A stretch of 64,000 nt of DNA. Source: an uncultured bacterium (lineage in GTDB: Bacteria > Auribacterota > Erginobacteria > Erginobacterales > Erginobacteraceae). Each line of letters opens with the position of its first letter. Positions within the stretch are counted from its first letter, which is position 1. The notes below the pieces were generated by a model. It had not been told where the DNA came from. It searched no databases and saw nothing but the letters and a program-made list of their open reading frames with translations. The position numbers and the translations under genes are program-made. The stretch covers positions 76,565 to 140,564 of the forward strand of contig CAZPMN010000003.1 of assembly GCA_964587835.1 (NCBI GenBank). The letters are read 5' to 3'. Of the stretch, positions 12,424 to 36,840 are shown one piece after another.

Positions 12424-13455
12424 TTATTTCCTGAGCCGGACTGTTACTTCGACCGTGGCGTCCACCCGGAGGTCGATATTCCGGCCCGGGAGGAACTTTT
12501 CCAGACCAATCCGAATATCCAGTTTCTGTTCCAGTCGCGAAGTGCTGGAAATCACCCGGCCCGCCGGCAGGTCAAAACGGGTCGTCCCGCTCAGCTGGTG
12601 GGAAGATGCAAGCAGGCCGGCCCTCCCCTCTCGCTCTTCGTCCGAAATTTCCTGCCGGAAACTTCCGGTGGTATCGAGCAGGGCTATCTCCCGTTGCGGC
12701 CCGGAGCGATCGCGCAGGGTGGTCTCAAGTTGGATCGACCATTCTTCGCCCTGGTCCCAGTCCCGGTCGATCCCCGGCCCCGGGATTTCCAGGGTCCTCG
12801 ACCAGGATGTCCCGAGCGGGACAGGCTGGAGGGGAAACTCGGGCTGCATCCGTTCCAGGAATGAATCAAATTGGAGCGACGGGAAGAGACGCTCAGGGGC
12901 TTCGGGAACCCGGGCCATCAGAATCGTTCCCCGGCTGTTGACCTGAAATTCAAATTCTTCCCCGACCACCCCCCGGAGGGGGAAATCGTCATCTTCCCCG
13001 GCTACCTCCCTGGTGACTCGGCCTGCTTCCGAGACGAGAAGTTTCCGGTCGGTCAGGTGCACGGATATTTCCCGATTATGAACGGCACTGACCGTGGTCA
13101 GGTCAAAATCCCGGTAGCTGAGTAACAGTTTGGCCTCTCCGTCCGGAAAAACCTGGTCGACCCGGAATCGCATCAGATAGCTTCCCTCCAACCGGACCGG
13201 GAGGCCGATCCGGTCTTCCTCGGCGTCTTCCCGGCCGTAAGTCATCGTCACCTCCCCCTCTCCCCGCAGGGCAACCTCATAGGTAATTTCCTCGCCCGGC
13301 CGGAATTTGTAACGCAAAAGAACGGTTTCCGGCGGCGGGCGGCGGCACCCGGCGGGAAGGCAGATCAGGATGAGCATCCCCAGGCGAAGAATTCCGGACA
13401 GGCGCGGACCAGCCCGCCGAGCGGGTCTCAAGCCGGAATCAAAACGGGAGGTCAC
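12424..13455 (-). CDS. putative lipoprotein, hypothetical
   Basis: N-terminus LGMLILICLPAGC resembles a signal peptide with lipobox cysteine. No recognisable catalytic motifs. Confidence 0.55.
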   Translation of the reverse strand: MTSRFDSGLRPARRAGPRLSGILRLGMLILICLPAGCRRPPPETVLLRYKFRPGEEITYEVALRGEGEVTMTYGREDAEEDRIGLPVRLEGSYLMRFRVDQVFPDGEAKLLLSYRDFDLTTVSAVHNREISVHLTDRKLLVSEAGRVTREVAGEDDDFPLRGVVGEEFEFQVNSRGTILMARVPEAPERLFPSLQFDSFLERMQPEFPLQPVPLGTSWSRTLEIPGPGIDRDWDQGEEWSIQLETTLRDRSGPQREIALLDTTGSFRQEISDEEREGRAGLLASSHQLSGTTRFDLPAGRVISSTSRLEQKLDIRIGLEKFLPGRNIDLRVDATVEVTVRLRK

Positions 13456-20541: not shown

Positions 20542-21441
20542 ATGCTCCTGATGAACGAGCTGGAATTTCAAAACTTTCTCTCCGAAAAGAGAGAGGTGGT
20601 AGATCTCGCCCTGGCCGACCTCCTGGAACGCGCCGGTTCCGTTAATCCACGGCTGGGGGAGGCGATCCGATACTCACTCCTCGGTGAAGGGAAACGGATC
20701 CGCCCGATCCTCTGTCTCAGCACCTGCCGGGCGGCCTCCGGGGTGGAGGCTCCGGCCCTGACCACGGCCTGCGCCCTGGAGATGATCCACTGCTACTCCC
20801 TGATCCACGACGATCTCCCGGCGATGGACGACGACGATCTCCGGCGGGGCCGCCCCTCCCTCCACCGAGCCTTTGACGAGGGCACCGCCATCCTGGCCGG
20901 GGACGCTCTTTTAACTCTGGCCTTCGAGACCGTCGCCCGCGACCGGGCACTTTCCGCCGGCCGGGCTCGGGAGATCATCGCCGAATTGGCCCAAGCGGCC
21001 GGGCAGCGGGGGATGGTGGGAGGGCAGCAGGCTGACCTGGACGCGGCGGGGCGGGCGATCAGCCGGGAGGAACTGGCCCGGATCCACGCCGGCAAGACCG
21101 GCGCCCTGATGGTCGCCGCCGTAACTAGCGGGACAATCGCCGGCGGCGGCAAGGTGGAACTGGTCGCCCGGATGCGCGACTACGGCCGCCAGATCGGGCT
21201 GGCCTTCCAGATCAAGGACGACCTCCTTGACGTCGAGGGAGAAGAGAAGGAACTGGGTAAGGCCGTCGGCCAGGACTCCCGGGGAAAGAAGGCCACCTAT
21301 CCCGCTCTCTGGGGCCTGTCCCGGAGCCGGGAGGAACTGCAGGGGGCGGTCCGGCAGGCCCACCGAGCCCTGGATGGACTGGGAGAAGAGGCCGAGCCGC
21401 TGAGATGGATCGCCGACTTTATCGCCCGGCGACGGAGCTGA
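20542..21441 (+). CDS. ispA: polyprenyl diphosphate synthase (FPP/GGPP synthase, IspA family)
   Basis: First DDxxD motif LIHDDLPAMDDDDLRRG, second motif FQIKDDLLD. Confidence 0.85.
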   Translation: MLLMNELEFQNFLSEKREVVDLALADLLERAGSVNPRLGEAIRYSLLGEGKRIRPILCLSTCRAASGVEAPALTTACALEMIHCYSLIHDDLPAMDDDDLRRGRPSLHRAFDEGTAILAGDALLTLAFETVARDRALSAGRAREIIAELAQAAGQRGMVGGQQADLDAAGRAISREELARIHAGKTGALMVAAVTSGTIAGGGKVELVARMRDYGRQIGLAFQIKDDLLDVEGEEKELGKAVGQDSRGKKATYPALWGLSRSREELQGAVRQAHRALDGLGEEAEPLRWIADFIARRRS

Positions 21442-22078
21442 CCTTCTTCCGCAGCCACTCGCTCCACCGTCCTGTCCCCTCCCCCGTCCGGCAGGAGATC
21501 TCGACCACCTCCAGGTCGGGGTTGATCTCCCTCAACCCCCCGTAAAAGGAATCCCGATCGAAGTCACTGTGAGGGATGAGGTCGATCTTGTTCAGGATCA
21601 CCACCTCGGCCTCCCGGAAAAGCAAGGGATACTTGGTCGGCTTGTCATCCCCCTCGGCCACGCTCACCAGCCCGATCTTGGCCGTCTCCCCGAGATCGAA
21701 GCTGACCGGACAGACCAGGTTGCCGACGTTCTCGATGATCAGCAGATCGAGCCCGGACAGGTCGATCGCCGGCAGGGCCTCCTTGATCATCAGCGGGCTC
21801 AGATGGCACCCACGGCCGGTATTGATCTGCAGCGCCGCCAGTCCCAGGCGCCGGAGCCGGACGGTATCCTTGTCCGAGGCTAGGTCGCCCTCGATCACCC
21901 CGATCTTCAGCTCCTCGCCCAGTTCCCGGTGGGCCGCCTCGATCAGGGAAGTTTTTCCTGAACCCGGCGAGCCGATCAGGTTGAAGACGGCCACGTGGTG
22001 TTGCTGGAAAAGTTTCCGGTTCTCTCCCCCGATCCGGTCTTCTTCTTTGAGAATGTCTTCCTTGATCGCGATCTTCAT
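21419..22078 (-). CDS. hypB: hydrogenase/urease nickel-incorporation GTPase HypB
   Basis: GSPGSGKTSLI (P-loop), IENVGNLVCP (HypB-specific CP motif), NKIDL. Confidence 0.85.
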   Translation of the reverse strand: MKIAIKEDILKEEDRIGGENRKLFQQHHVAVFNLIGSPGSGKTSLIEAAHRELGEELKIGVIEGDLASDKDTVRLRRLGLAALQINTGRGCHLSPLMIKEALPAIDLSGLDLLIIENVGNLVCPVSFDLGETAKIGLVSVAEGDDKPTKYPLLFREAEVVILNKIDLIPHSDFDRDSFYGGLREINPDLEVVEISCRTGEGTGRWSEWLRKKVSSVAGR

Positions 22079-22081
22079 CTT

Positions 22082-22104
22082 AAAATTTTCCTGCAGAAAA
22101 TTTT
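22082..22104. promoter_or_regulatory. 23-bp perfect AT-rich palindrome AAAATTTTCCTGCAGAAAATTTT abutting the hypB start codon (candidate operator)
   Basis: Read directly. Stands out in a ~65% GC background. Only 3-4 nt from the hypB ATG and ~90 nt downstream of the hypA stop. Confidence 0.5.
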
Positions 22105-22149
22105 AGTATCGGGGTTTTTGTCCGCGGGCGATCAGGCTCACTTCTTCCC

Positions 22150-22185
22150 GCCCACCGCTTACCGCTCACTGCTTACCGCTTACTA
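22150..22185. repeat. heptamer array (CCGCTTA / CCGCTCA / CTGCTTA) between hypA and hypB
   Basis: cccaccgcttaccgctcactgcttaccgcttact read directly. Related to the arrays at 59326-59440. Confidence 0.55.
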
Positions 22186-22196
22186 TTCCCCATCCC

Positions 22197-22538
22197 CTAC
22201 TCCCCCTCCAGGCAATCGAGAAAGAGCTCGTCCCCGGAGAGGATCTCCAGATCGGTGGATCCGCACTCGCCGCAGGTGAAGGCCAGGTCATCCCCGGCCT
22301 TCCCCGCCCCGCAGCTCCGGCAGCGCACCGCCAGGGGGATCTCCTCGATCTTCAGCTCGGCCCCGGCGAACTCCGTCTCCCCGATCAGATGCCGGAAGGC
22401 GGTCTGGAGCGTCTCCGGAACCACCTGCCGCAGCACCCCGACCTTGACGTGAACCTCGGATATCTTGCCCAATCCCTCTCTCCGGGCCGCGGACGCCGCC
22501 AGGCGGACCAGGTTATCAGCGATCGTCCACTCGTGCAT
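22197..22538 (-). CDS. hypA: hydrogenase nickel-insertion protein HypA
   Basis: Start at MHEWTIA. C-terminal CxxC...CxxCGS zinc site (CRSCG...CGECGS). The ORF-track N-terminal extension is judged non-coding. Confidence 0.8.
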   Translation of the reverse strand: MHEWTIADNLVRLAASAARREGLGKISEVHVKVGVLRQVVPETLQTAFRHLIGETEFAGAELKIEEIPLAVRCRSCGAGKAGDDLAFTCGECGSTDLEILSGDELFLDCLEGE

Positions 22539-22605
22539 ATCTTTACACCCGTCATCTTTCCTTATTGCACAAAACCGGTATGACTTGAATTGTGCAATAA
22601 GAGAG

Positions 22606-23532
22606 TCAGGCGGGTTTGGGTTCTGGGGCAAAATCGATCTCGTAGACGTCGAGGTCGCGGGCGATCCGGGTGGCCGGGAACTCCTTCCGCGCCTCTTGCA
22701 GCATCGGTTTGATCGAGAGGTAGCGGGGACTGATGTGGACCAGGACCAGCTTTCCCACCCCAGCCCGACGGGCCAGGCCGGCCGCCTCCCGGGCGGTGGA
22801 GTGGCCCTTGAGCCCGCTCTCGGAGGCCATATCGTCGCCGAACATCCCGTCGTGGATGAGCAGGTCGGCCCCCCGGACGAACTCCTCCGCCCCGGCGAAG
22901 GGTCGGGTATCGACCATATAGACCAGCGTCCGCCCCGGACGGGGCGGGCCGAGAACCTCCTCCGGCTTCACCACCCTCCCTCCCTCCAGGGTGACCTCCT
23001 CCCCTGACTGGAGACGTTTGTAAAGCGGCCCGGCCGGGATCCCCAGCCGCTCGGCCGCCTCCAGGTCGAATCGGCCGGGCCGGGGATATTCCTTGAGCCG
23101 GTAGGCCAGGGTGAAGACCCGGTGATCGACCGGAAGGGCGTCGATCCGGTAATTGGACTCCTCGATCACCGCCCCCCCCTTGATCTCCCTCACCTCCAGC
23201 GGGTAGGCCACTCCGAACCTCAGGTACTTTCGGGAGAGGTCGACGTAGCCGCGGATCCCGGGAGGCCCGTAGATGGTCAGCGGATCGGTCCGCGAGCCCA
23301 TCGACATTGTCATCAGCAGCCCGGCCAGGCCGATCACGTGGTCGCCGTGGAGGTGGGTGACGAAGATCGCCCGGAGCCGGGCCCAGCCCAAATGGGACTT
23401 CGCCAGCTGAAGCTGGGTCCCCTCCCCGCAGTCGAAGATAAACATCTCCCCCTCCCGGAGCACCGCTGTCGCCGGGAGCATCCTCCGGGAGGTCGGGAAT
23501 GCTCCCCCCGAACCAAGCACAACCACTCTCAT
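22606..23532 (-). CDS. rnz: ribonuclease Z (tRNA 3' endonuclease, metallo-beta-lactamase fold)
   Basis: VVLGSGGAFP, THLHGDH, HIS...PRY motifs. Confidence 0.85.
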   Translation of the reverse strand: MRVVVLGSGGAFPTSRRMLPATAVLREGEMFIFDCGEGTQLQLAKSHLGWARLRAIFVTHLHGDHVIGLAGLLMTMSMGSRTDPLTIYGPPGIRGYVDLSRKYLRFGVAYPLEVREIKGGAVIEESNYRIDALPVDHRVFTLAYRLKEYPRPGRFDLEAAERLGIPAGPLYKRLQSGEEVTLEGGRVVKPEEVLGPPRPGRTLVYMVDTRPFAGAEEFVRGADLLIHDGMFGDDMASESGLKGHSTAREAAGLARRAGVGKLVLVHISPRYLSIKPMLQEARKEFPATRIARDLDVYEIDFAPEPKPA

Positions 23533-23740
23533 TATCCATACGCCCCTTGCACGCGATAGGTTGGGAAGAGAATAAGTTGAGTCTGTTTATTTCCCGATTT
23601 TTGTCAACGGAGAATTCCGAGATGAAAGGACAAAATGCCCCAACGGCCCCTGAATCCGGTCCATCCCTAAGATCCCCTTGAAAAATATAGTTGCTTTTAC
23701 CCCTATTCCCCGCTACCTTACTGACTCTTCAAAACAATCT

Positions 23741-23814
23741 GGGGGCGTAGCTCAACTGGTTAGAGTACCGGACTGTCGATCCGGGTGTTGCGGGTTCGAG
23801 TCCCGTCGTCCCCG
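23741..23814 (+). tRNA. tRNA-Asp (anticodon GTC)
   Basis: Manually folded cloverleaf: acceptor GGGGGCG/CGTCCCC, anticodon arm CCGGA-CTGTCGA-TCCGG giving GTC, T-loop GGTTCGAGTCC, discriminator G. CCA not encoded. Confidence 0.9.
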
Positions 23815-23816
23815 TG

Positions 23817-23850: not shown

Positions 23851-24065
23851 CTATTGGAATCGAAGTATTCCAACACCCGCAACAAGTTGTTTCTTCCCTC
23901 TTTCGTGGTAAAGTTAATTTTCAGTCCGTTCCAATCTCCGCGGTTTCCCTTTTCCCAATCATTTCACCCTGCAGAAGGTGAAAATCTATATTCACCGGTG
24001 TCTGAATATTATTGCAAAAAGGTTATGAATATCGTAACCTTCCTGCAAATTCTATGGTGCAAGCT

Positions 24066-24719
24066 ATGCAAACATTAACCGAGAAAGTTTACCGGCTGGC
24101 TCCTCCGGGCGGAATTTTTGCTGAATCCGTGGTGCGAAATCTCTTGCCGTCGGCCTCGGATACAGCCCGGAAACAGTTCATCTACCGGGCGGTGAGCAAC
24201 GGAGAGATCCTGAGACTCAAGCCCGGACTTTACTGCCTGGCGGAAGCATATCGAAAAACCCATCCCCACCCGTTTGTTGTGGCCGGCTTGCTTCATTCTC
24301 CCTCCCACATCAGCCTGGAATCAGCGCTCTCGTATTATGGACTGATCCCGGAGGCGGTCCACGGCGTAACCAGTGTGACCGACCGCCGAGGCCGGACGTT
24401 CCGGACGCCGCTGGGAGATTTCAGTTTTACAAGAGTCCCCGCCGACGAACCCCGTGCCGGAGTCCGGCATATCAATATCGATAACCAGGGATGGATCTTC
24501 ATCGCCGGGCCGATGAGGGCTATTGCCGATTTGATCTATCTGCGAAAAGGGGTCTTCTGGAAAAAAGACGGCTTAAGATTTCTAACGGAATCCCTGCGCA
24601 TTGAAAAAGACGATCTTCATAAGATCCCGCTGGATGATTACGAAGAAGTCTTCAGCAGCCTGAGAAACAAAAGAACTAAAACATATCTCAAAGGTCTGAG
24701 ATCGGAGTTGGAGCGATGA
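24066..24719 (+). CDS. type IV toxin-antitoxin AbiEi-family antitoxin (wHTH transcriptional regulator)
   Basis: ORF 24012..24719. Probable start at MQTLTEKVYRL. 4-nt overlap (ATGA) with downstream AbiEii gene, the typical AbiE arrangement. Confidence 0.7.
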   Translation: MQTLTEKVYRLAPPGGIFAESVVRNLLPSASDTARKQFIYRAVSNGEILRLKPGLYCLAEAYRKTHPHPFVVAGLLHSPSHISLESALSYYGLIPEAVHGVTSVTDRRGRTFRTPLGDFSFTRVPADEPRAGVRHINIDNQGWIFIAGPMRAIADLIYLRKGVFWKKDGLRFLTESLRIEKDDLHKIPLDDYEEVFSSLRNKRTKTYLKGLRSELER

Positions 24720-25582
24720 TTGGAGAGATTATCAGCGAAAGAGTGCGGGATTATGCTCCAGTCGACGCCCTGGAGCAGGAGAATATTCTGGTCGAACTGC
24801 TTCAGCGCTACGTATTGGCCGCGCTTTCCCGGACCCGCTTTTTTTCCCAGGCCGGTTTTCACGGCGGGACCTGCCTTCATATCTGTTACGGGATAAGACG
24901 TTTCTCGGAAGATCTTGATTTCCTGCTGAAAGAACCCGATCCAAGTTTTGCTTGGGGGCCGTATATTGAGAAGGTTATCGCGGACAACCGGGATGAAGGG
25001 ATCCGTTTCGAACCTCAGGACAAATCGAAATCGGGAACGGCGGTGAAAAAGTATTTTTTGAAAACCGGACTCAGCGGGGAAGAGATGCGGGGATTAAAAC
25101 TTCCTTTTCCTCGCCACCCGGGCCAAAAGATCCGGATCAAGCTGGAAGCGGATGCCGATCCCCCCGGCGGGTCGGGCTTCGAGACGCGATACATCGATTT
25201 CCCAATGACGGCGGCAATCACAACTCAAACTCTTGCCTCGGGGTTCGCGACCAAATCACACGCCTTGCTTTGCCGGGAGTATGTCAAGGGTAGGGACTGG
25301 TATGACTTTCTCTGGTACGTCACGAAAAAAATTGTCCCCGATTCGGCGCTTCTCGCTAATGCCCTTAAACAGCAGGGGCCGTGGGCCGGTCAATCCATCC
25401 GGATGACCCGCGCGTGGTATCTTGAAACGATGAGGCAGAGGATCAAAGAAATCGACTGGGGCAAAGCCAGAGAGGACGTCAATCGTTTTATCCCCGCCCG
25501 GGAGCGGGAGAGCCTTAATGCGTGGGGCCCGGACTTATTCCTGCAGTCCCTCGATCGAATGGCAGAGATTATGGGGGATTAA
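24716..25582 (+). CDS. AbiEii/AbiGii-family nucleotidyltransferase toxin
   Basis: GGTCLHICYGIRRFSEDLDF (AbiEii NTase signature with the conserved RFSEDLDF block). Confidence 0.8.
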   Translation: MIGEIISERVRDYAPVDALEQENILVELLQRYVLAALSRTRFFSQAGFHGGTCLHICYGIRRFSEDLDFLLKEPDPSFAWGPYIEKVIADNRDEGIRFEPQDKSKSGTAVKKYFLKTGLSGEEMRGLKLPFPRHPGQKIRIKLEADADPPGGSGFETRYIDFPMTAAITTQTLASGFATKSHALLCREYVKGRDWYDFLWYVTKKIVPDSALLANALKQQGPWAGQSIRMTRAWYLETMRQRIKEIDWGKAREDVNRFIPARERESLNAWGPDLFLQSLDRMAEIMGD

Positions 25583-25755: not shown

Positions 25756-25856
25756 GGGGAGAGTTGTCCCGGTCACAGACCGGGATCGTCCCCGTTAGCG
25801 AAATTCGTTCGCAGCAAAAAATTGACCTGAGCGGCAGATTGGAGTATTATTTCAGT

Positions 25857-26087
25857 ATGAGCATAACAGCAGAGAAGGTCATAACAGAAGCCCTGGCCCT
25901 CTCCCCGCAGGCGCGGGCGTTCGTGGCCGAGCGCCTGATTGAAAGCCTTGACGCCGGCCCGGGAGAAGCTATTTCCCCGGCGTGGCGCGACGAACTGCGC
26001 AAGCGATGCCGGGAGATGGACGAGGGCGCGGTCGAGTTGCGCGAGGCCGCCGATGTGTTTGCTCAAGCCTATGCTGCGCTCGGATGA
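25857..26087 (+). CDS. putative addiction-module antitoxin component (TIGR02574-like)
   Basis: ORF 25764..26087. Internal Met gives MSITAEKVITEALALSPQARAFVAERLIESLD..., typical of this small helical antitoxin family. Overlaps the toxin start by 4 nt. Confidence 0.65.
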   Translation: MSITAEKVITEALALSPQARAFVAERLIESLDAGPGEAISPAWRDELRKRCREMDEGAVELREAADVFAQAYAALG

Positions 26088-26374
26088 AGCCCATCCGATT
26101 TCATCCGGACGCCGATACGGAGATGCTTGATGCCGCGGTATGGTACGAATCCCAACAACCAGCCCTCGGCAAGCGTTTCCTTGCCGCCGTCCAGGATACC
26201 CTGAATCGGATTGAGCTGAACCCCGAGCTCTACGCCCCCGTCGAGGGGGATGTCCGACGATGCCTGACCAGGACTTTTCCCTTCGGCGTTTTATTCCGGA
26301 TCAAACCAGATTTCATCGCAGTCATAGGCGTAATGCATCTGCATCGCGAGCCGGATTACTGGAAAAGTCGGTAA
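26084..26374 (+). CDS. RelE/ParE-family type II toxin
   Basis: ORF 25982..26374. Start at MKPIRFHPDADTEMLDAAVWYE. ~96 aa. ATGA overlap with the antitoxin. Confidence 0.7.
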   Translation: MKPIRFHPDADTEMLDAAVWYESQQPALGKRFLAAVQDTLNRIELNPELYAPVEGDVRRCLTRTFPFGVLFRIKPDFIAVIGVMHLHREPDYWKSR

Positions 26375-26416
26375 TTGTCGCGAAGCGGTGCCGGCTGTCG
26401 CCGCTCACCGCTGACT

Positions 26417-26632
26417 ATGATCCCACAGTATCTCCCGGTGCCCATCCCGAACCGTCCGGAACAGGGTGAGCCTATTGACGAGCCCCAGAAGAACCCGGAA
26501 CCGGCCATCGAGCTGATTCTGGAGGGGATCGCCGAACTCGGGATCTCCCCCCGCCGGAACGAGACCATCACGACCAAGCTCGAAGTCGATACCAATTTCA
26601 ACACCAGTCCACAAACGGCGCACGGATTATGA
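26417..26632 (+). CDS. small ORF (~71 aa, Pro-rich N-terminus), hypothetical; first gene of the overlapping NUDIX-PHP-kinase operon
   Basis: ORF track 26375..26632. Strong GC third-position bias. Stop overlaps the NUDIX ATG by 4 nt (ATGA), suggesting translational coupling. Confidence 0.4.
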   Translation: MIPQYLPVPIPNRPEQGEPIDEPQKNPEPAIELILEGIAELGISPRRNETITTKLEVDTNFNTSPQTAHGL

Positions 26633-27057
26633 AACGATTCAGCGGGATAATCGCCGAGGTTTACCTGGTCCCGGTCCGGGAGGGGCGCATCCTGCTCCTG
26701 CGGCGTTACCGGACCGGCTACGAAGACGGAAACTACGGCCTGGTCTCCGGGCACGTAGAGGCGGGGGAGACCTGCCGGGAAGCGATGATCCGGGAGGCGG
26801 AAGAGGAGGCGGGCCTGGAGATCCAGGCCCGGGAGCTGGAGCTGGTCCATCTTATGCACCGGCTCTCGGAGAAGAAGAGAAGGATCGCCTTCTTCTTCCG
26901 CCCCGGGGAATGGCGCAATGAACCCGAGAACCGGGAGCCGGACAAGTGCGACGATATGAGCTGGCACTCCCTCGACCGCCTCCCCTTGAACACCATCCCC
27001 TACATCAGGGAAGCCTTGCGGCAGATCGCCGGGGAAAGCCGGTACAGTGAGTTCTGA
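26629..27057 (+). CDS. NUDIX hydrolase
   Basis: Nudix box GHVEAGETCREAMIREAEEEAGL (GX5EX7REUXEEXGU). Confidence 0.8.
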   Translation: MKRFSGIIAEVYLVPVREGRILLLRRYRTGYEDGNYGLVSGHVEAGETCREAMIREAEEEAGLEIQARELELVHLMHRLSEKKRRIAFFFRPGEWRNEPENREPDKCDDMSWHSLDRLPLNTIPYIREALRQIAGESRYSEF

Positions 27058-28561
27058 GTCCAGCCCATTCGTCCACCTCCACAATCATTTCTCCGGCTCG
27101 ACCTCGGACAGCATCCTGAAACTGGACGAGGCGATCGGGGTGGCAAAAGACCGCCGACAGGTTGCCCTGGCGATCACCGACCACGGAAAATTATCCGCGA
27201 TCTGGCCGTTTTACTTCCACTGCCTCGAGCGGGGGATCACTCCCCTGCTGGGCTGCGAACTCTATTTTCTCCCGGAGTCCTCCCGGCCCTCCCCGGTCGC
27301 CCACCTGGTGGTCCTGGCCAGAGACCTGCCGGGGCTCTTCAACCTGGTCCGGCTCTCTTCCTGGAGCTGGGAGCGCAACTTCTCCCCCCCCGATTACGGA
27401 CTGGTGGACTGGAATATGCTGGAACGTTTCCGTGATGGACTGATCGTCCTCTCGGCCTGTATCAGCGGTCCGATCGGACTCGCCCTCCGGCGCCACCAGA
27501 CCGCCCGGGCACAAGAACACTTTGACCGGCTGGAGGAGATCTTCGGGGATGATTTCTACCCCGAGGTCTCCGGCCACAACCTCAAGGAGCAACCCCGACT
27601 CAACCGGTTCATCGCCGACCAGTGCCGGCGGCACCACAAGATCCCCGTGGTCACCAACGACTGCCACTATCTGGCCGCCGCGGATTGGCGCGCCCACGAC
27701 ATCTTCGTCAAGACCGCCGACAAGTATCCCTCGGACTTCGCCTATTCGGCCCGCTGCTTCTACCTGAAAGACGATCGTGAGATGGCCGGCCTGGGGTTCC
27801 CTCCCGCCTGGCTGAACAAGACCCGGGAGATAGCGGAGAAGACGACGGTTCACGTTGAACTTGACGGATACCTGAAACCCGGGTCCCCGGCCCCGGCCGA
27901 GAAGGCCGTCCGGCGCAGTCTGCCGGTAGTCCGCCCGCTTTGCCTCGGACCGGCGGCAGCGCTGCGGACCGCCGGGCGGGTCCTTAATTCGGAGAGCCGG
28001 AAACTCCATATCCTGGCCGGGCTGGCGGACGGCCGCGAGACGCTCGAAGAGTGCTCCCGAGGCAGCCGGGAATTTCGCGCCCTCATCGACACGGAACCCG
28101 AACTCTGGCGTGAAGCCCAAAAGCTGGAAGGCGTGGTGCGGGAGTTTATCCCTGATTTCCGCCGGTGGGTAGACCTGGACGCGAAGATGGCCCGTTTGAT
28201 ACCGATCCGGCTGATCAACGGCGAACCGGCCGCGGATATTGAGGAGGGGATGCTGGCGAAGCTGGGGGTTGAGGCCCGGGCCGCCGCCGCGGAGGAGGAG
28301 GCGGCCGGAGTCGATTTCACTGACGGCTACGCTTCCTGGTGGGATGACGACTACGACGATGTCATTGACAAGCTGGGCCGAATTGGTATAATTAGGCGGG
28401 ATGTGTACTTCCTTTTGGGAGACAGCTGTCTCCGCCGGGGCCGGCGGAAGCAGGCTGTCATCTTCCTGGAACTGTTTCTGCGTTCCGGGGATATATCTTT
28501 CCACCGTGGTTTCCCCCGGCTGGCCCGGGAGTACCTGGAACGCTTGCGGGATCAAGGATGA
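27047..28561 (+). CDS. stand-alone PHP-domain protein resembling the N-terminal ~330 aa of DNA polymerase III alpha (DnaE), with an unrelated ~170-aa C-terminus; no polymerase core
   Basis: FVHLHNHFSGSTSD...ALAITDHG...GCELYF, HFDRLEEIFGDDFYPEV, IPVVTNDCHYL...AHDIFV. Collinear with E. coli DnaE residues ~5-330 (compared by eye against the remembered DnaE sequence). Confidence 0.65.
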   Translation: MSSESSPFVHLHNHFSGSTSDSILKLDEAIGVAKDRRQVALAITDHGKLSAIWPFYFHCLERGITPLLGCELYFLPESSRPSPVAHLVVLARDLPGLFNLVRLSSWSWERNFSPPDYGLVDWNMLERFRDGLIVLSACISGPIGLALRRHQTARAQEHFDRLEEIFGDDFYPEVSGHNLKEQPRLNRFIADQCRRHHKIPVVTNDCHYLAAADWRAHDIFVKTADKYPSDFAYSARCFYLKDDREMAGLGFPPAWLNKTREIAEKTTVHVELDGYLKPGSPAPAEKAVRRSLPVVRPLCLGPAAALRTAGRVLNSESRKLHILAGLADGRETLEECSRGSREFRALIDTEPELWREAQKLEGVVREFIPDFRRWVDLDAKMARLIPIRLINGEPAADIEEGMLAKLGVEARAAAAEEEAAGVDFTDGYASWWDDDYDDVIDKLGRIGIIRRDVYFLLGDSCLRRGRRKQAVIFLELFLRSGDISFHRGFPRLAREYLERLRDQG

Positions 28562-29775
28562 GCGGCAAGTCTGACAGTCTGGATAGGTTGTCCCAGCGTT
28601 ACTGCCGGGAACTGCTGAAGATCAGCCTGGCGATAAACGCCGAGCTGGACCTGAAGGAACTGCTGGATATGATCGTCCACTCCGTGCGCGATCTGACCTC
28701 CTGCGACGATGCCAGCATAGTCCTCTGGTGTCCCCGCCAGGCCTGTTTCAAGATCGGGGCTTCCACCAATATCGGAGACACGGTCAGCCGGCGAGTCCGG
28801 CAATCCGGCGGGGCCAGCCGGTGGGTGGTGGATCACGGGAAACCGGTGGTCGTCAAGGACACCCGCCGGGATCCCTTCGTGGCCAACCCGATGATCCCCC
28901 AGGCGGGGATACTTTCCTACACCGGTGTCCCCATCAAGCAGGCCGACAAGGTAACGGGGGTGCTTTATGCCCTCTACCTGCGCGTTCACGCGGCCACCTC
29001 GGATGAACTGTGGGTAATGGAGCAGGCGGCAGCCAGCGCCGCCGCGGCCATCCATAACGCCAGCCTGGTCGATTCGTTGCGCAACCTGAATGCCTTCAAG
29101 AGCGCGATGACCCGGATGCTGGTCCATGACCTGCGCAATCCCCTGACCACCTTGATGGGGGGGGTGGAACTGATGCAGCTGGAACTGGAGGAGACCAGCC
29201 CGGAATTTCAAAAGTGGCTGTCGGTCATTGGGCAGCAGGCCGCCCGGATGGATGGGATGATTACCAGCATCCTCACCTACGATAAGATCAACTCCATCGA
29301 GGAGATCGAGCGCAAGCCTCTTGACCTCAACCTTCTTGTCCGCGAGGCCGCCGCCGACCTCAAGGAAGCGGCGGTGCAGAAATCCCAACGGCTGAAGCGG
29401 CAGGTATCCGCCCAGCCTCTCTGGACTTACGGCAACCGGGTGATGCTCCGCGAAGCGGTCGAAAACCTGCTGATGAACGCCATCAAGTACACTCCCGCCG
29501 GGGGAAGTATAACCGTGAGGACCCGGCGGACCGGCAAGTATTGCCTGCTGACGGTCAGCGACACGGGACCGGGGATCCATCCGAAAGACCAGAAGAAGCT
29601 ATTCCAGCCGTTTGTCCGGCTGGAACATCACAGCGGGGAAAGGGGCAGCGGTCTGGGCCTGTGCCTGGTGAAACTGATCATCGAGCGGCACGCCGGCGAG
29701 GTCGCCGTGGAGAGCACTCCCGGAGAAGGATCGACCTTCTCGATCCGCCTGCCCCTCTTCACTGAGGGAGATTGA
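28558..29775 (+). CDS. cytoplasmic GAF-domain sensor histidine kinase (GAF-HisKA-HATPase_c), no receiver partner in window
   Basis: H-box MLVHDLRNPLTTL, N-box ENLLMNAIKYT, G-boxes SDTGPGI / GSGLGL. No TM segment. Confidence 0.8.
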   Translation: MSGKSDSLDRLSQRYCRELLKISLAINAELDLKELLDMIVHSVRDLTSCDDASIVLWCPRQACFKIGASTNIGDTVSRRVRQSGGASRWVVDHGKPVVVKDTRRDPFVANPMIPQAGILSYTGVPIKQADKVTGVLYALYLRVHAATSDELWVMEQAAASAAAAIHNASLVDSLRNLNAFKSAMTRMLVHDLRNPLTTLMGGVELMQLELEETSPEFQKWLSVIGQQAARMDGMITSILTYDKINSIEEIERKPLDLNLLVREAAADLKEAAVQKSQRLKRQVSAQPLWTYGNRVMLREAVENLLMNAIKYTPAGGSITVRTRRTGKYCLLTVSDTGPGIHPKDQKKLFQPFVRLEHHSGERGSGLGLCLVKLIIERHAGEVAVESTPGEGSTFSIRLPLFTEGD

Positions 29776-29984
29776 CCGCGAGCCGCGGGGGATCAGGTGA
29801 CCCAAAGGCCTCCGCTTCCAGGACAGCCCCGCTTTTACGGCCGCTTCCGGGCAAAGTTTACCGAGGAAGCATTCTCCGCGGTCCGGCCGATAATGATCCC
29901 CAGGGTCCGTAAGGCGAAGATAATGGCCGGGTTTCGCTTCAAGGTCGGCTCCCATCTTCACGTTGGCGCTTACCGGCCGAACTC

Positions 29985-32900
29985 TTAACCGCGAGCGAGG
30001 TCGGCCAGTTCGGCATCGATCCGGACTACCCTGCCCTTTCGGATATCACGGGCGGCGCTGCCCCTGACCTCGCCGCCGGCGACGGCGACTTTCCGACCGT
30101 TGCCGTAGGTGAGCCGGTAGTTGACCACGCCTGTCCCCGACTGCCGGGAGACCGGACCCTGGCCCCCGCGGTGATAGACGACCAGGATCCGGCCGAGCAG
30201 GAGAAAGGCGAAAGAACCGGCCGGCAGCCTTAGTTTTTTCCGCCGGCCGGATCGATCCAGGTACCCGGTTTCACGCCCTGAACGGGTGAATAGCCATTCG
30301 GGAAGTGCGGGATCAAGACGGAAAGCGAGACGGGCGTCGCCTCCCAGGTAGAAGGGCCGGGGACCGGCGGTCATCAGGGTCCAGATGTGGATCATCTCCC
30401 CGGTGACCCCGCTCAGCCGGGGCTGGAGACCGCGGCCGTGCAGCGTCGGGTCCGGAAAGGCGGAGGAGACGATGAAGGAGACGTTCTCCAGGGGACTGCG
30501 GCCGTAAACCTCCGGGGAGAGGAAGGGAGGAAGCGCCGTCTTCAGGTCGGCGAAGAACTCCCGGTGGAGACCGGCGCGGAGCAGCTCGAGCAGGTACTTG
30601 AACTCCATATGGGTGTAGATCGATTCGTTCTCGATCCAGCCCGGGCCCCAGGCCTTGACCCTCCCGATCTCGAACGGCGCCTCCTCGAGGGACTCGCAGA
30701 CCTTGTACATCTTCAGCTTCCCGTCGAAGAGCCCGGAATCCCGGACCGCCCGGTAGATGGTTTCGCCTCCTTCCGGATGCACCCGGAGGTAGTGAACCGG
30801 CCCCTCGAGGAAGAGGGGGAGCGGTTCCTGACGGAAGGAGAGCGGCTCGACCAGGGGGAGTCCGTCGGGGTTGCGCAGGATTTGGCCATCGCTCCCCCGG
30901 CAGCGGCGAAAGCGGGTGACCCGGTTGACCAGGTAGGTGTAGGGAATTCCGGCCGGGTTGAAGACCCGGCGGCGATTCTCCGGACGGTAGATGAGTCGGA
31001 CCACCTTCAGCCCCGATTCGAGGAAGCAGGCCAGTTCATCCCGGGTCAGGGTCTTCTCCCCTCCCCCGATGCCATAGGCGGTGGCGGCGCGGTACTTCTC
31101 CTTCAGGGTGTTGCTCAGGTCCCAGTAGCGGCGGGGGCCGATCTTGCCGGCCCCCCGGCGGGCGGCCAGCCGGGTCAGGCTGGCGATAAAATCGGCCAGC
31201 TCGGAATAAACCCGGACCGGCCGCTCGAGGCCGGCGAGACAAGAAAGGAGGAATTCCAGGGCCCGCTCCAGCTCGAAGGTCTGGCAGAGCGAGGAGCCAT
31301 TGATCCCGGGCAATCCGTTCATCGAGTCGTTCCAGCCGGGCTTGTCGGCCTCCATCTCGATCCCGAACCCCTCCGGATCAAGGGTGGCCAAACGGTTAGC
31401 GACCAGGCAGAGCAGCTTGGTCAGGAGGCAGGTGTAGTAGACCTCCCCCCGGCCGCGCCGGGCCCGCATCCGGAGGGGGGAGCTTTCCCGGGCGGCGATC
31501 ATCGCCGATTTCTTCCCGTCGCGGACCACGGCGCCGTAGCGCCTCACACCCTCGTCGGTGAGAACGTACTTCTCCGAGCGGGGCACGACCAGGTCGGGGT
31601 TGTCGTAAAAATAATACCGCCGGTTCCCCACCAGCAGCTCCTCGGCCCGATCGGGGAAGACGGAAAGGAAGGCGTCAAGGAGGTCAAGGTTGTAGAGCCA
31701 GTGGTCGACCCAGTAGCCTTCGTGGACCCCGGCGGAGTCCTCCTCGACGCAGAAGCCGAGCAGCTTGTTCAGCAGCCGGCCGGGGTTATTCGACCCCCGG
31801 ATTTTCAGTTTTTCGGCCGCCATCGCGAACTCTCCCGGAGAGAAGGAGCCGGCGAGCAGCTCGCCCAGCCGGCGGGATTTCTCCTTCCCGGCGATAGTTT
31901 TCAGCCAGCGGCGGCAGCCCGCCCGGTTCTCGACCCGATAAACGACCTGGTTGACCTCCAGGGGGTTGTAACCGTCGGTCTGGATCAGGTTGAGGAAGAG
32001 CCGGATGTTCTCGTCCTCGGTCTCGGGGAAGAACCTCACGTCGCAGCGCCGGTTCTGGTTGACGGAGCGGTAGTGCCCGGTCCCCTGGGAGTAGTAGGTG
32101 GGGTCGAGGACGAAAAAATGGTAATCGCGCTCCAGGTCGCCGTTCTGGCGGGAGTAGAGGTAGAAGGCCGATTTCCCCTCGGCGGCGTTAAAGACGGTCG
32201 GCATCCCTCCCCGGATCACGTTGTCGAGAAAGGTCTGCCGGCAGTAGTTATCGAAGTCGGGCTCGCCGGAGGCGGTGAAGCACAGATCCTCGATCCCCCG
32301 GACCAACTCCGCGTTCTCCTTGCGCTTGGCGGCCAGGTAGCGGGGACCGAGACGCCGGATCAACCCCGGTATCTCTTCCTCGTCTTCCTGGCCGATCACG
32401 GAGTAAATCCGGAAGGTCTCTCCCGGTTTAAGGCGGAACGGCGCGGCAGCGAAGGCGCAGGGCGTTTTGTTCTGCCGGGCCTGGCTCTGCTGGAATACCT
32501 CGCCCGGGGCTAGCCGGGCCAGGCGCCAGGGCTGGTCGTAGATCTCGCTGTCGGCGAAGATTACCGCCGGATCGACGATGTAGGAGGTCCGGCGGGGGTC
32601 GGGCCGGTCGGAGGCAAAGGCGGCGTAGAAGTTGCCCCGGCGGATTTGCTCGATTTGCTCTACGTCGGCCGGGCTCTGCTTGAGCCGGAAGAGCGGCACC
32701 CCAAAGCAATCGAAGACCCCGATCATCCCCTCGATATGGCGGGCGGTGGTCTTAAGGATCTCCAGGTCGCAGCCGAAGGGAAGGATCCGGGCCGCCCCGT
32801 CGACCACCTCTCCCTCCAGGGTCCGCTGGGAGATATTGCGCAGGGAGAGGACCCGGACCAGGGCGGGAAAGCTCTCCCCGGGTAGGGTGTAGTAATCCAC

Positions 32901-33275
32901 CCCGGTCACCAGTCCCCTCCGGGGAGAGGACTCGCCCAGGGTCAGTTCGGCCGGGGACACCGTCAGAATCTGCCTGATCCCCCGCTCCCGGCTCTTCCGG
33001 AAAGGCTCGTATATTCGGCCCTTCCCGATCCGGATAAAGGTCCGGAACCCCTGATGACCCACCACCTGGAGGGCCCGGTTGAAGGAGAGGAATTCCAGGA
33101 TCTGGTTGTCCTTGTCCCCCACCCCCGCCGAGCAAAGGCACTGACCCCGGCTGACGTAGTAAGCCCAGAGGGGGATGCCGGTCTCCCCGGCGATCCCGGG
33201 GAGAAAGTTGGAAAAGGAAGGCTGCCAGTTGTAATCTTCGACGAGAAACAAACCTTCCGGGGTGGTCTGGTACAT
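29985..33275 (-). CDS. large (1096 aa) conserved hypothetical protein, possibly a six-hairpin (alpha/alpha)6 glycoside hydrolase/phosphorylase-like enzyme
   Basis: Uninterrupted ORF. Start chosen at MYQTTPEGLF, 7 nt after GGAGG. Blocks such as KPGWNDSMNGLPG and GYWVDHWLYNLDLL are reminiscent of GH15/65/94-type barrels, but assignment is tentative. Confidence 0.55.
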   Translation of the reverse strand: MYQTTPEGLFLVEDYNWQPSFSNFLPGIAGETGIPLWAYYVSRGQCLCSAGVGDKDNQILEFLSFNRALQVVGHQGFRTFIRIGKGRIYEPFRKSRERGIRQILTVSPAELTLGESSPRRGLVTGVDYYTLPGESFPALVRVLSLRNISQRTLEGEVVDGAARILPFGCDLEILKTTARHIEGMIGVFDCFGVPLFRLKQSPADVEQIEQIRRGNFYAAFASDRPDPRRTSYIVDPAVIFADSEIYDQPWRLARLAPGEVFQQSQARQNKTPCAFAAAPFRLKPGETFRIYSVIGQEDEEEIPGLIRRLGPRYLAAKRKENAELVRGIEDLCFTASGEPDFDNYCRQTFLDNVIRGGMPTVFNAAEGKSAFYLYSRQNGDLERDYHFFVLDPTYYSQGTGHYRSVNQNRRCDVRFFPETEDENIRLFLNLIQTDGYNPLEVNQVVYRVENRAGCRRWLKTIAGKEKSRRLGELLAGSFSPGEFAMAAEKLKIRGSNNPGRLLNKLLGFCVEEDSAGVHEGYWVDHWLYNLDLLDAFLSVFPDRAEELLVGNRRYYFYDNPDLVVPRSEKYVLTDEGVRRYGAVVRDGKKSAMIAARESSPLRMRARRGRGEVYYTCLLTKLLCLVANRLATLDPEGFGIEMEADKPGWNDSMNGLPGINGSSLCQTFELERALEFLLSCLAGLERPVRVYSELADFIASLTRLAARRGAGKIGPRRYWDLSNTLKEKYRAATAYGIGGGEKTLTRDELACFLESGLKVVRLIYRPENRRRVFNPAGIPYTYLVNRVTRFRRCRGSDGQILRNPDGLPLVEPLSFRQEPLPLFLEGPVHYLRVHPEGGETIYRAVRDSGLFDGKLKMYKVCESLEEAPFEIGRVKAWGPGWIENESIYTHMEFKYLLELLRAGLHREFFADLKTALPPFLSPEVYGRSPLENVSFIVSSAFPDPTLHGRGLQPRLSGVTGEMIHIWTLMTAGPRPFYLGGDARLAFRLDPALPEWLFTRSGRETGYLDRSGRRKKLRLPAGSFAFLLLGRILVVYHRGGQGPVSRQSGTGVVNYRLTYGNGRKVAVAGGEVRGSAARDIRKGRVVRIDAELADLARG

Positions 33276-33437
33276 CAGAGGACCTCCGTGAGCTCGATTT
33301 CCGGGAAGTTCCACCATAACAGCGCCGGACCCGGCCGGTCAAGGACAAGGACCGGCCGGGCCCGGGCAAACTTTATCTTGCCTCCCGAACCGGGCCGGAT
33401 TATCTTTTTCCGGAGCCAACCTCGCCCCGGAGACAGG

Positions 33438-35149: not shown

Positions 35150-35647
35150 TCAGGGCAATTCGACGATATTGCTCAGCACTACCGGATCGGCGTAGGGGTT
35201 GTCGGAGGCTTCCACCAGGTAGAGGGTCCAGCCGGAGGGAACGGCCAGAGAGAGGGTGAATTCCCCGGTCTGGGCGCTGAAAAGCCCCAAGTTGTTCTGA
35301 TCGACCAGGATCCGGTTGTCGGTGGTCAGCCGGGTATGGACGGCGATCCGAACGTCCCCCCGGTAGGGTTGGAGCAGGCGGTAGGAGAAGGAGAGGTTAT
35401 CCGGCTTCTCACCGCTGACGGCGATCAGATAAACGTCTCCCCCCTCCGGCTGAAAATCCAATTCCGGCAGGACCGAATTCCAGAAGCAGCTTACCGTCTG
35501 GCCGGATGCCGGAGACTCCGGCACCGCCGCGGGGGTCGAGACGGGGGACAGGGCTGGCGGCGGGGAGACCACCTCTCCGACCGCCGGAAGACCCGGAAGC
35601 AACAAAAGCAGCAGAGCCAATCGCCACGTCGTTTTCAGCATATCCAT
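35150..35647 (-). CDS. secreted hypothetical protein
   Basis: Signal peptide LALLLLLLPGLPAVG. No known motifs. Confidence 0.45.
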   Translation of the reverse strand: MDMLKTTWRLALLLLLLPGLPAVGEVVSPPPALSPVSTPAAVPESPASGQTVSCFWNSVLPELDFQPEGGDVYLIAVSGEKPDNLSFSYRLLQPYRGDVRIAVHTRLTTDNRILVDQNNLGLFSAQTGEFTLSLAVPSGWTLYLVEASDNPYADPVVLSNIVELP

Positions 35648-35671
35648 ATCCTTCCCGCCCCCGGTGAATTC

Positions 35672-36658
35672 TCAGCCGCCGAGGTCATTCCGGTTAAACT
35701 TCACCCGCTTCCGCCAGTATTCAAGGATCGCCCTCAGCGTATCTTCGATTCCGTGTTCCGGCCGCCAGCCGGTAGCTTCCGAAAACCGGGTGTGATCCCC
35801 CTGAAAGATCGGAACCTCGGTCTTCCGCATCCTCTCCTCGGCGACCCGAACCTCGATCTTCGACTTGCTGAGCGCCAGCAACCGGTCGAGAATTTCCCGG
35901 ATCGGGTAGGCCTGCCCGGAACAGATATTGTAGATCCCCCCGGGTTCGCACCGGTCGACCGCCAGACAATAACCCCGGACCATATCCCGGACATCGGTGA
36001 AGTCCCGGGCCGGGGTGAGGTCACCGACCTCCAGGACCGGTGGCTGTACTCCCCGTTCGATCCGGGCGATCTGGAGGGCGAAAGAGGCGGTGACGAAACG
36101 GGGCCGCTGACCGGGACCGATGTGGTTAAAGGGGCGAAGCACGACCGCGTCCAGTCCCCGGTTCCGGAAATAGTAGGCGGCGGTCTGCTCGGCGCAGAGC
36201 TTGGTCAGTCCGTAGATCGAGGCGGGGCGGAGGGGGTGGTCCTCGGCGAGAGGCATCTCTTCCGGCCGGGCCTTGCCGTAAACCTCGGCCGAGCTGACCA
36301 GGATCAGCCGGACCCGTTTGGCGAGGTCGGCGGCGGCCTCGAAAACGTTCAGGCTGCCCTTGATATTGGTCTCAAAGGCCAGCTGGGGGTCGGACTGGGC
36401 CATTGGGATATGGGTGGTTCCGGCCAGGTGGAAGATCGCGTCCGGGCGGAATTTCTCAATCACCCTCCCCAGTTCCCTCACCGCCAGGATGTCGCATTCC
36501 TCCACCCTGACCCGGTTGAGGAGGAAGATGGGGTGGTCGAAGACAGCGCCGTGACGCTCGATCCCGATCACTTCCCACCCCGCCTCGACCAGGGACCAGG
36601 CCAGATGCCCCCCGGCAAAGCCGGCAATCCCGGTTATCAGCGCCTTGCGCATTTTCAA
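35672..36658 (-). CDS. rmd: NAD-dependent epimerase/dehydratase, GDP-4-keto-6-deoxy-D-mannose reductase (Rmd)-like
   Basis: ALITGIAGFAGGHLA Rossmann motif, YxxxK (YGLTKLCAE). Located next to gmd as in GDP-D-rhamnose clusters. Confidence 0.65.
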   Translation of the reverse strand: MKMRKALITGIAGFAGGHLAWSLVEAGWEVIGIERHGAVFDHPIFLLNRVRVEECDILAVRELGRVIEKFRPDAIFHLAGTTHIPMAQSDPQLAFETNIKGSLNVFEAAADLAKRVRLILVSSAEVYGKARPEEMPLAEDHPLRPASIYGLTKLCAEQTAAYYFRNRGLDAVVLRPFNHIGPGQRPRFVTASFALQIARIERGVQPPVLEVGDLTPARDFTDVRDMVRGYCLAVDRCEPGGIYNICSGQAYPIREILDRLLALSKSKIEVRVAEERMRKTEVPIFQGDHTRFSEATGWRPEHGIEDTLRAILEYWRKRVKFNRNDLGG

Positions 36659-36660
36659 AC

Positions 36661-36840
36661 CACTAATTACACTAATTAACTTGCATTATCCCCCCACCTC
36701 GCCCCCTTTGAAGTCCACTAATTACACGAATTATCACTAATTTTATTTAGAATCCCCCACCTCACCCCCTTTCAGTCCACAGATTACACTGATTACTCAG
36801 ATCAGTTCCCCCTGCCCACTGCCTACTCCCCACTGCCCAA
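36661..36840. repeat. repeat-rich intergenic region between gmd and rmd. ~40-bp direct repeat x2 (ATCCCCCACCTCGCCCCCTTTGAAGTCCACTAATTACAC), plus CACTAATTACAC and CACTGCC sub-repeats.
   Basis: Read directly at 36688-36727 and 36747-36785. Confidence 0.7.

Follow-up and report, generated by a model that had tools for sequence, protein, structure and literature searches.

What becomes of the front end of a DNA polymerase when the polymerase itself is gone, and why would such a remnant be encoded next to a NUDIX hydrolase and a sensor kinase? The question is raised by a gene in a 64,000-nucleotide stretch of DNA from an uncultured bacterium of the Erginobacteraceae (contig CAZPMN010000003.1, positions 76,565 to 140,564 of the forward strand). 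The whole stretch is referred to as the window, and positions are counted from its first letter. The gene (27047-28561, + strand) starts with GTG, encodes a protein of 504 amino acids (aa) and ends with a stop codon that overlaps the ATG of the following kinase gene. An earlier note on this DNA had read the same open reading frame (ORF) as a stand-alone protein ending at residue 504, and the ORF list gives the identical span and strand. From its alignments, the protein is an internally deleted DnaE to which a TPR-like domain has been added, a polymerase-less DnaE paralogue.

The N-terminal part is a DnaE1-type PHP domain (residues 6-287; 27062-27907, + strand), as indicated by Pfam PF02811, a DnaE hidden Markov model (HMM) and Foldseek. 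PHP is the sole Pfam domain of the protein (residues 10-175, E 8e-31, 108 bits against a cut-off of 26.4). The NCBIfam DnaE models cover residues 6-285 only, with 172 bits against a full-length cut-off of 1002. The DnaE1-type model reaches E 1e-50, compared with 4e-8 for DnaE2 and 4e-13 for PolC. The solved structures of the Taq, Mycobacterium tuberculosis (Mtb) and Escherichia coli Pol III alpha subunits match residues 6-282, with E values down to 4e-29. In Foldseek, the predicted model superposes on the E. coli PHP-only constructs 4gx8 and 4gx9 with a root-mean-square deviation of 2.4-3.1 A over 264-273 columns, at 27-28% identity. The motifs quoted in the earlier note are present as HLHNH at residue 10, ITDHG at 43, GCELY at 69, VVTNDCHY at 201 and AHDIFV at 216.

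All nine metal ligands of the PHP site are intact (H12, H14, D21, H46, E71, H86, C138, D205 and H207). The ligand histidines had already been described as intact, and the complete set bears this out, as nine of nine are kept and none is substituted. The resulting string, HHDHEHCDH, is the one by which a 2026 survey calls a PHP domain 'active' (general form HHDHEH[C/H]DH; PMC12926913). Residues D21, E71 and D205 align with D23, E73 and D226 of Mtb DnaE1, in which mutation of D23 or D226 abolishes the exonuclease (PMC5636811).

The earlier note had residues ~1-330 aligned with the PHP domain and adjacent region of DnaE, followed by a sequence that leaves DnaE entirely. The PHP match stands, whereas the collinearity stops at about 287-291 and is subsequently resumed. 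The full-length DnaE HMM hits the window protein twice, with HMM positions 2-291 on residues 6-287 and HMM positions 430-502 on residues 300-366. The junction between the two (residues 288-299; 27908-27943, + strand) was located by two-domain hmmsearch and by alignment with genuine DnaE N-halves. In this segment, 12 residues stand in for about 138 DnaE HMM positions (~292-429), among them GPGRGS and the catalytic PDxDxDF motif. The identical deletion junction is found by two-domain hmmsearch in P0056, P0059 and P0081 (P-numbers designate homologous proteins and L-numbers loci in this analysis).

The stretch that follows the junction (residues ~300-407; 27944-28267, + strand) is a remnant of the DnaE thumb and second palm segment, as indicated by hhalign, phmmer, BLASTP and Foldseek. 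The comparison of eight family tails with 18 full-length DnaEs by hhalign gives a probability of 96.2% and E 2.5e-9, and places tail columns 18-125 (window residues ~300-407) on DnaE template positions 434-549. Residues 286-400 alone retrieve, with phmmer, dozens of independent full-length DnaEs, always collinear and always at ~428-540. The tail also aligns with a 533-aa relative, P0004 (BLASTP E 6e-5), which aligns end to end with the N-terminal half of a genuine DnaE (E 1e-55). HMMER against the solved structures gives weak second alignments of window residues ~304-401 to DnaE ~500-607. The template-modelling (TM) score of the model, normalised to the query, rises from 0.49 with PHP-only constructs to 0.68-0.72 with full-length DnaE structures, which means that about 100 more residues can be superposed on DnaE. 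The remnant is marked by the motifs AALRTAGRVL, KLEGVVRE and LIPIR, and the HAAGVVI strand of DnaE is replaced by a family-specific PD[FP] motif (PDF in the window protein).

The numbering of the catalytic motifs in the DnaE alignment used here coincides with that of E. coli (D401, D403 and D555). The layout of the E. coli alpha subunit is PHP 1-270, palm 271-432 plus 511-560, and thumb 433-510. With these boundaries, the retained piece is the thumb and the start of the second palm segment, and what has been excised is the first palm segment, the site of GPGRGS and of the D401/D403 dyad. The DnaE homology stops just before K553/D555. The palm with the catalytic aspartates (E. coli D401, D403 and D555) and GPGRGS is absent from the window protein in HMM searches and alignments. 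No Pfam match other than PHP is obtained, neither for the fingers (PF07733/PF17657) nor for the HhH/clamp-binding region or the OB fold. The initial description of a protein without palm, thumb, fingers or OB fold is thus correct for the catalytic palm, fingers and OB fold and wrong for the thumb. Similarly, the part of the tail that is foreign to DnaE is confined to residues ~410-504, which are TPR-like, since residues ~300-407 are homologous to DnaE.

The C-terminal domain (residues ~415-503; 28289-28555, + strand) was recognized from the helices of the model, a weak Pfam TPR_2 match and Foldseek. It contains a conserved WW/W-x-D-D-Y-[DE] motif followed by helical hairpins, with five model helices at residues 415-432, 436-444, 451-463, 467-479 and 489-503. 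The TPR_2 match in the window protein is weak (E 0.0055, 17 bits against a cut-off of 27), and passes in the homologue P0052 at residues 445-469, the region aligned with the window C-terminus (29.1 against 27). Clear TPRs are assigned by Pfam in P0056, P0059, P0060 and P0068. Local Foldseek matches to the TPR proteins 4cgu, 6vfh and 6v8e have a probability of 1.0 but E values of ~0.2. The tail has no PHROG match, and a tail-only family profile search of the indexed collection gives zero matches at E<=0.001. AlphaFold, supplied with a 17-sequence alignment, predicts a single compact structure for the whole protein, with a predicted local distance difference test (pLDDT) score of 92.4 and a predicted TM score of 0.92. 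This model replaced an earlier poor one obtained from a 10-sequence alignment (pLDDT 63.5).

A protein that descends from DnaE and lacks most of it could also be the product of a dnaE that is decaying, truncated or wrongly assembled, or an N-fragment whose polymerase is split and finished by a second gene. On long contigs, there are indeed DnaE N-halves of about 545 aa whose catalytic motifs are intact. These are P0008, P0015 and P0024 (541-553 aa, PDxDxDF intact, contigs of 19-125 kb), which end at or just before KMDFLGL and could be split genes, frameshifts or a dnaE insertion hot-spot. The evolutionary record of the window gene, on the other hand, is that of a functional gene. Its only close relative is the cluster P0002 (19 members, 502 aa), 61% identical to the 504-aa window protein and aligned with it over the full length with only 2 gap positions. 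Synonymous sites between the two genes are saturated (proportion of synonymous differences, pS, 0.65-0.79), and the guanine-cytosine (GC) content is 63% in one and 47% in the other; therefore, the two lineages are well separated. The ratio of nonsynonymous to synonymous substitution rates (dN/dS) is 0.16 overall, 0.16 in the PHP part and 0.14 in the middle part. At the C-terminus, where dS is saturated, the corresponding ratio of proportions (pN/pS) is 0.47. Purifying selection acts on every segment of the 504-aa protein.

There are no frameshifts relative to this homologue, the gene is internal to the contig and its own stop overlaps the start of the next gene, the same deletion junction recurs in several lineages, and the predicted fold is compact and confident. 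Because the catalytic dyad itself is absent from the window protein, no C-fragment could restore a polymerase. Selection, the compact fold and the position inside the contig with an ATGA overlap therefore exclude that the gene is a pseudogene, was truncated in assembly or is half of a split polymerase, and the idea of a broken or divided dnaE is hardly credible. The earlier view that this may be an active enzyme and not a decayed dnaE is supported, as far as sequence can tell, by the invariant ligands, by the selection, by the fold and by a homologue of the same length in the same three-gene operon; the protein is probably an active stand-alone PHP enzyme. A full-length dnaE is expected elsewhere in the genome of the window, because all bacterial genomes surveyed have one or more complete C-family polymerases (PMC3919608).

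The window protein is not alone. An exhaustive HMMER search over 1.84 billion cluster representatives retrieves additional proteins whose match runs uninterrupted through the tail; they are forms of 400-600 aa, plus longer fusions. Among the 150 best representatives, 29 bear the N-terminal signature HxHFxGSxSDS, which stands where DnaE has HxHSxYSLLDG, and are without PDxDxDF. Two of these, P0120 and P0187, are as long as DnaE and could be genuine polymerases in which the motif varies. Conversely, P0055, P0063, P0064 and P0070 are members that the signature filter missed, and the family is estimated at ~30 cluster representatives among the 150 best. In a neighbour-joining tree of PHP domains, built from simple distances and a biased DnaE sample, 24 short forms make up one clade apart from 45 full-length DnaEs (bootstrap 180/200), and the window subgroup is recovered with 199/200. 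The polymerase-less DnaE lineage is thus monophyletic in this tree, and the window protein is a family member rather than a one-off. Outside this clade, P0109 (417 aa) is a short DnaE-like protein that lacks the palm and has the usual N-terminal motif of DnaE (YSLLDS); it may have arisen by a separate deletion or be a piece of a pseudogene.

Other searches were less productive. When the genome contigs are scanned with a profile of the close subgroup, L014 is the sole family member among the 80 loci kept, the rest are ordinary DnaE PHP domains, and the genome of the window is not among them. A family-alignment profile search of the indexed collection returns mostly DnaEs and none of the diverse family members. 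Among phage sequences, the PHP domain is matched at residues 8-240 (E 1.5e-38) by the PHROG family phrog_7513 (unknown function; profile of length 461), and BFVD holds PHP-only phage proteins such as A0A5Q2W3U5 (447 aa), which may be stand-alone DnaE-type PHP proteins of phages. No phage protein with the PHP-thumb-TPR architecture is found in BFVD. Literature searches gave no description of a polymerase-less DnaE/PHP-TPR family. Two surveys of the C family left out proteins whose polymerase domain was not intact or could not be reliably identified (PMC12926913, PMC3919608), and so would not have reported such a family.

The members of the family record different stages of polymerase loss. P0003, P0004, P0005 and P0063 (530-552 aa) keep a palm-like segment in which the catalytic and GPGRGS motifs are degenerate, for example FAHLVIS where DnaE has PDIDIDF. 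P0061 (455 aa) clusters with P0003-P0005 and keeps only the distal part of this segment. In most other members, the window protein included, the palm-like segment is excised. This distribution suggests that the polymerase site was inactivated first and deleted later. At the other end of the protein, many members bear longer TPR arrays. In P0051 (1342 aa; L096) and P0055 (1765 aa), the whole PHP-thumb-TPR module lies N-terminal to two class III adenylate/guanylate cyclase domains, and the fusions continue with an AAA_16 STAND ATPase and TPRs, in long arrays in P0055. P0053, P0054 and P0057 carry C-terminal extensions without an assigned domain; for P0053 and P0054, a by-eye guess of STAS or PilZ was dropped, as Pfam gives no support even at E<=10.

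The metal site is the constant feature of the family. The nine ligands are invariant in the 17-member alignment, in which the other members are 28-61% identical to the window protein, and all full-length members keep them. The string HHDHEHCDH is found in 28 of the 29 signature-positive representatives, the 29th having an alignment gap at one ligand position. This invariance bears on whether the protein could be a non-catalytic scaffold or adaptor, with the PHP barrel kept for structure or partner binding and the TPR for assembly. The E. coli PHP domain has indeed a structural role and binds epsilon (PMC3666897), and the window protein has a TPR-like tail. Nevertheless, non-catalytic PHP domains such as that of E. 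coli lost five of the nine ligands (PMC5636811), and a scaffold is a quite improbable explanation for a lineage that lost none.

The genes on both sides form an operon of overlapping genes with the PHP gene. Upstream, a NUDIX hydrolase gene (26629-27057, + strand; 142 aa; Pfam NUDIX E 3.4e-18) encodes an intact Nudix box, GHVEAGETCREAMIREAEEEAGL. The best NCBIfam similarities of its product are MutT-like and below cut-off. Downstream lies the gene of a soluble GAF-HisKA-HATPase_c sensor histidine kinase (28558-29775, + strand; 405 aa; identified from Pfam and sequence). The NUDIX and PHP genes overlap by 11 nucleotides (nt) and the PHP and kinase genes by 4 nt (ATGA), and the gene after the kinase is convergent. 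The operon with a NUDIX hydrolase and a kinase proposed in the earlier note is therefore visible in the gene overlaps. The trio is kept, with the same NUDIX-PHP overlap, in the six metagenomic loci (L001-L006) of the 61% homologue, in which the flanks differ. The identities are 74% for the NUDIX protein, 61% for the PHP protein and 65% for the kinase, and the dN/dS of the kinase gene is 0.18.

Inside the 3' end of the PHP gene, at 28365-28392 (+ strand), lies a perfect extended sigma-70 consensus (TTGACA, 16-nt spacer with TG, TATAAT; 12/12), ~165 nt upstream of the kinase start. It is unique in the 64 kb, and 100 shuffles yielded none. The L001 homologue shares the -35 element, a conservation confounded by coding (IDK). 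The element is predicted as a possible internal promoter for the kinase.

The surroundings of the trio could suggest an anti-phage or stress-response island module, consisting of NUDIX, nuclease and sensor, beside toxin-antitoxin genes. Immediately before the trio, and after a tRNA-Asp gene (23740-23815), comes a stretch of low GC content (53% against ~62%) that looks island-like. This stretch holds AbiEi/AbiEii (24012-25582) and an antitoxin/ParE pair (25764-26374). The trio of the homologue is likewise preceded by a toxin-antitoxin pair (DUF433/PIN), and the NUDIX protein weakly matches the PADLOC candidate PDC-S07 (E 3e-9). On closer view, the NUDIX match is generic, the kinase match in PADLOC is marginal and the PHP protein matches 0 defence families. 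In addition, the GC content of the trio equals that of the genome, and other family members reside in housekeeping contexts, which leaves a defence or stress module with a slim chance of being right.

What the protein does can be approached from its parent. DnaE1-type PHP domains with nine ligands are Zn-dependent 3'-5' exonucleases, and the helical thumb of DnaE1 sits between the polymerase site and the PHP site. In Mtb DnaE1, the primer passes the thumb on its way to the PHP site (PMC5636811). From these two facts we infer that the polymerase-less DnaE1 paralogue is a stand-alone Zn-dependent PHP 3'-end nuclease or phosphoesterase, a predicted activity that we regard as somewhat likelier to be right than wrong. 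The paralogue has lost the palm segment with the Asp dyad and all from the third catalytic aspartate on, including the fingers, the clamp-binding region and the OB fold, and cannot polymerise DNA. The complete trinuclear metal site of the PHP domain, the helical thumb and the added TPR-like tail are left under purifying selection. The PHP phosphodiesterase would then act on nucleic-acid 3' ends, by 3'-5' exonuclease activity or 3'-end cleaning, apart from any polymerase, with a precedent in the PHP domains of Taq, Tth and Mtb DnaE1 and of PolX. The thumb remnant would help to hold the substrate, and the TPR tail may dock the enzyme onto a partner protein. In this lineage, the enzyme shares a translationally coupled operon with the MutT-like NUDIX hydrolase and the GAF sensor kinase, and the three would be made together.

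The neighbourhoods of other family members, sampled in about ten lineages, count in part for this 3'-end nuclease. The ruvB gene lies 10 nt downstream of P0060 (L097 3989-6811), and an RNase HIII gene lies upstream of P0056 (L013 6840-9746) and of the family gene in L014 (8637-11743). In both L013 and L014, the family gene is followed by genes for a 913-937-aa membrane protein and for a TPR_21 protein. Other contexts are of a different kind, as P0004 and P0005 are flanked by ExbBD-TonB and a flavodoxin-like gene, and P0059 lies upstream of hydrogenase-maturation (hyp) genes. Within the window subgroup, Mtb K136/W137, which the exonuclease requires for DNA binding, are aligned with a conserved PP[KRD]Y hairpin.

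Several observations weigh against a 3'-end nuclease. At the position that matches Mtb K136, the window protein has D rather than K or R, and the loop that lines the primer groove, of 29 residues in Mtb, is reduced to ~10. The nine ligands are also kept in 116 of 124 non-family representatives, the nearest full-length DnaEs, so part of the ligand conservation could be inherited and not newly selected. No neighbour is common to all the sampled members, and the recurring themes are signalling genes as well as DNA-metabolism genes. The NUDIX hydrolase and GAF kinase of the window, the 1332-aa PAS hybrid histidine kinase at whose stop P0052 begins, and the cyclase-STAND fusions suggest a role in signalling or nucleotide metabolism no less than one in DNA repair.

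These same genes are the basis of the main rival to the nuclease, a small-molecule nucleotide phosphoesterase in a signalling or nucleotide house-cleaning pathway. Such an enzyme could be a cyclic or linear nucleotide phosphodiesterase, a pNp phosphatase or a pyrophosphatase; it would act on a compound that the NUDIX hydrolase translated with it consumes or releases, and the GAF kinase would respond to a related ligand. The conservation of the overlapping trio at 61-74% identity between differing flanks, the hybrid kinase beside P0052 and the fusion of PHP-thumb-TPR to two class III cyclases and a STAND ATPase all fit. Furthermore, some PHP enzymes use nucleotides or pyrophosphate, 2yb1 has AMP bound and RNase AM is among the Foldseek matches. 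A pyrophosphatase activity is reported for the E. coli DnaE PHP (PMC4822814). On the other hand, the window protein is far closer to DnaE PHP domains (E 1e-25) than to the nucleotide-acting PHP enzymes (E 1e-5, TM 0.25-0.28), and the retention of a DNA-contacting thumb is hard to explain in a small-molecule enzyme. The ruvB and RNase HIII neighbours of other members also count against it, and the leader gives no riboswitch or other ligand clue, as Rfam finds no RNA family at 26300-30100. Taken together, a small-molecule substrate is possible but unlikely.

In a further reading, which we consider rather doubtful, the PHP-thumb-TPR module of a replicative polymerase may have been taken over by signal transduction. 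Within it, the PHP domain might hydrolyse a cyclic or linear nucleotide messenger, or be a regulated nuclease output. Its partners would be sensor kinases, the GAF kinase here and the PAS hybrid kinase beside P0052. If true, the cyclase fusions P0051 and P0055 would be a synthesis-plus-degradation arrangement like that of the GGDEF-EAL proteins.

In three different lineages, genes for hydrogenase maturation are found no more than a few kb away from the PHP-family gene. They comprise hypB/hypA at 21419-22631 of the window, hypABEDC with a HypF_C protein at L007 1792-6328, and hyp genes at L098/L099 9205-12897 (HypF_C-HypC-HypD-HypE in L099). This synteny was set aside as a functional link; shared ancestry of the neighbourhood is more likely, and it may be a coincidence. 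Elsewhere in the window, the 1110-aa ORF at 29985-33317 (- strand), convergent with the kinase gene, has no match in Pfam or PADLOC, and the ORFs at 35336-36679 (447 aa) and 12424-13455 (343 aa) have no Pfam match. A 1583-aa protein at 5515-10266 (- strand) consists nearly entirely of HEAT/PBS-lyase repeats, with 23 HEAT_2 stretches.

C-family polymerases are usually seen as replicases or translesion enzymes. Here, a conserved, monophyletic lineage has lost its polymerase, probably by inactivation and then excision. The PHP metal site and the thumb were kept under selection after the loss of the polymerase, which implies that the PHP activity serves the cell in its own right. The PHP exonuclease is a drug target in mycobacteria, and the window protein offers a natural minimal stand-alone PHP enzyme for the study of PHP exonuclease chemistry. 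It also raises the question of why a PHP enzyme is wired to NUDIX hydrolases, sensor kinases and cyclase-STAND proteins.

Among the known systems, the DnaE1 PHP domains of M. tuberculosis, Thermus aquaticus and T. thermophilus are the closest match in sequence and fold. They have the identical HHDHEHCDH trinuclear site, including the Mtb residues D23, E73 and D226, and the adjacent thumb. The window protein differs from DnaE1 in the missing catalytic palm, fingers, clamp-binding region and OB fold, in the short active-site loop and in the added TPR-like tail, and it is encoded with NUDIX and kinase genes instead of replication genes. Judged as a C-family polymerase, it has the PHP domain and fails in the catalytic palm, fingers, OB fold and full-length score. 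Judged as a PHP superfamily protein, it has a profile score above the gathering threshold, a (beta/alpha)7-barrel fold that superposes on solved PHP domains and a complete set of ligands. The PHP of the E. coli alpha subunit (4gx8/4gx9, PMC3666897), structural and epsilon-binding, is the best PHP-only structural match; it is inactive, with five of nine ligands lost, whereas the window protein keeps all nine. RNase AM/TrpH and Cv1693 (7ug9, 9etk, 2yb1) are likewise stand-alone PHP metalloenzymes, which act on nucleic-acid ends or nucleotides. Their likeness to the window protein is a distant one of fold only (E ~1e-5, TM 0.25-0.28), and they have neither a DnaE thumb nor TPRs. The cyanobacterial split DnaE-N and other DnaE N-halves are, like the window protein, N-terminal DnaE-derived polypeptides. 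In split DnaE-N, the catalytic palm is kept and the polymerase is completed by trans-splicing, whereas in the window protein the dyad is deleted and there is no intein; the split DnaE N model NF007079 gives 91.6 bits against a cut-off of 1525. The nearest parallel in logic is provided by the 'PolX-like' proteins of Actinobacteria, homologues of PolX1 that lack the polymerase domain and keep an active PHP (PMC12926913). In both cases, a polymerase-associated PHP nuclease would survive as a stand-alone protein after the loss of the polymerase. The parent of the window protein, however, is of family C and not X, its PHP domain is N-terminal and of DnaE type, and it is joined to a thumb remnant and a TPR-like domain. 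PolX is not among its significant sequence or fold matches, the top ones being all of the C family (DnaE or PolC). The window protein is therefore best described, on its sequence relationships, as a C-family counterpart of the 'PolX-like' proteins and not as a member of that group.

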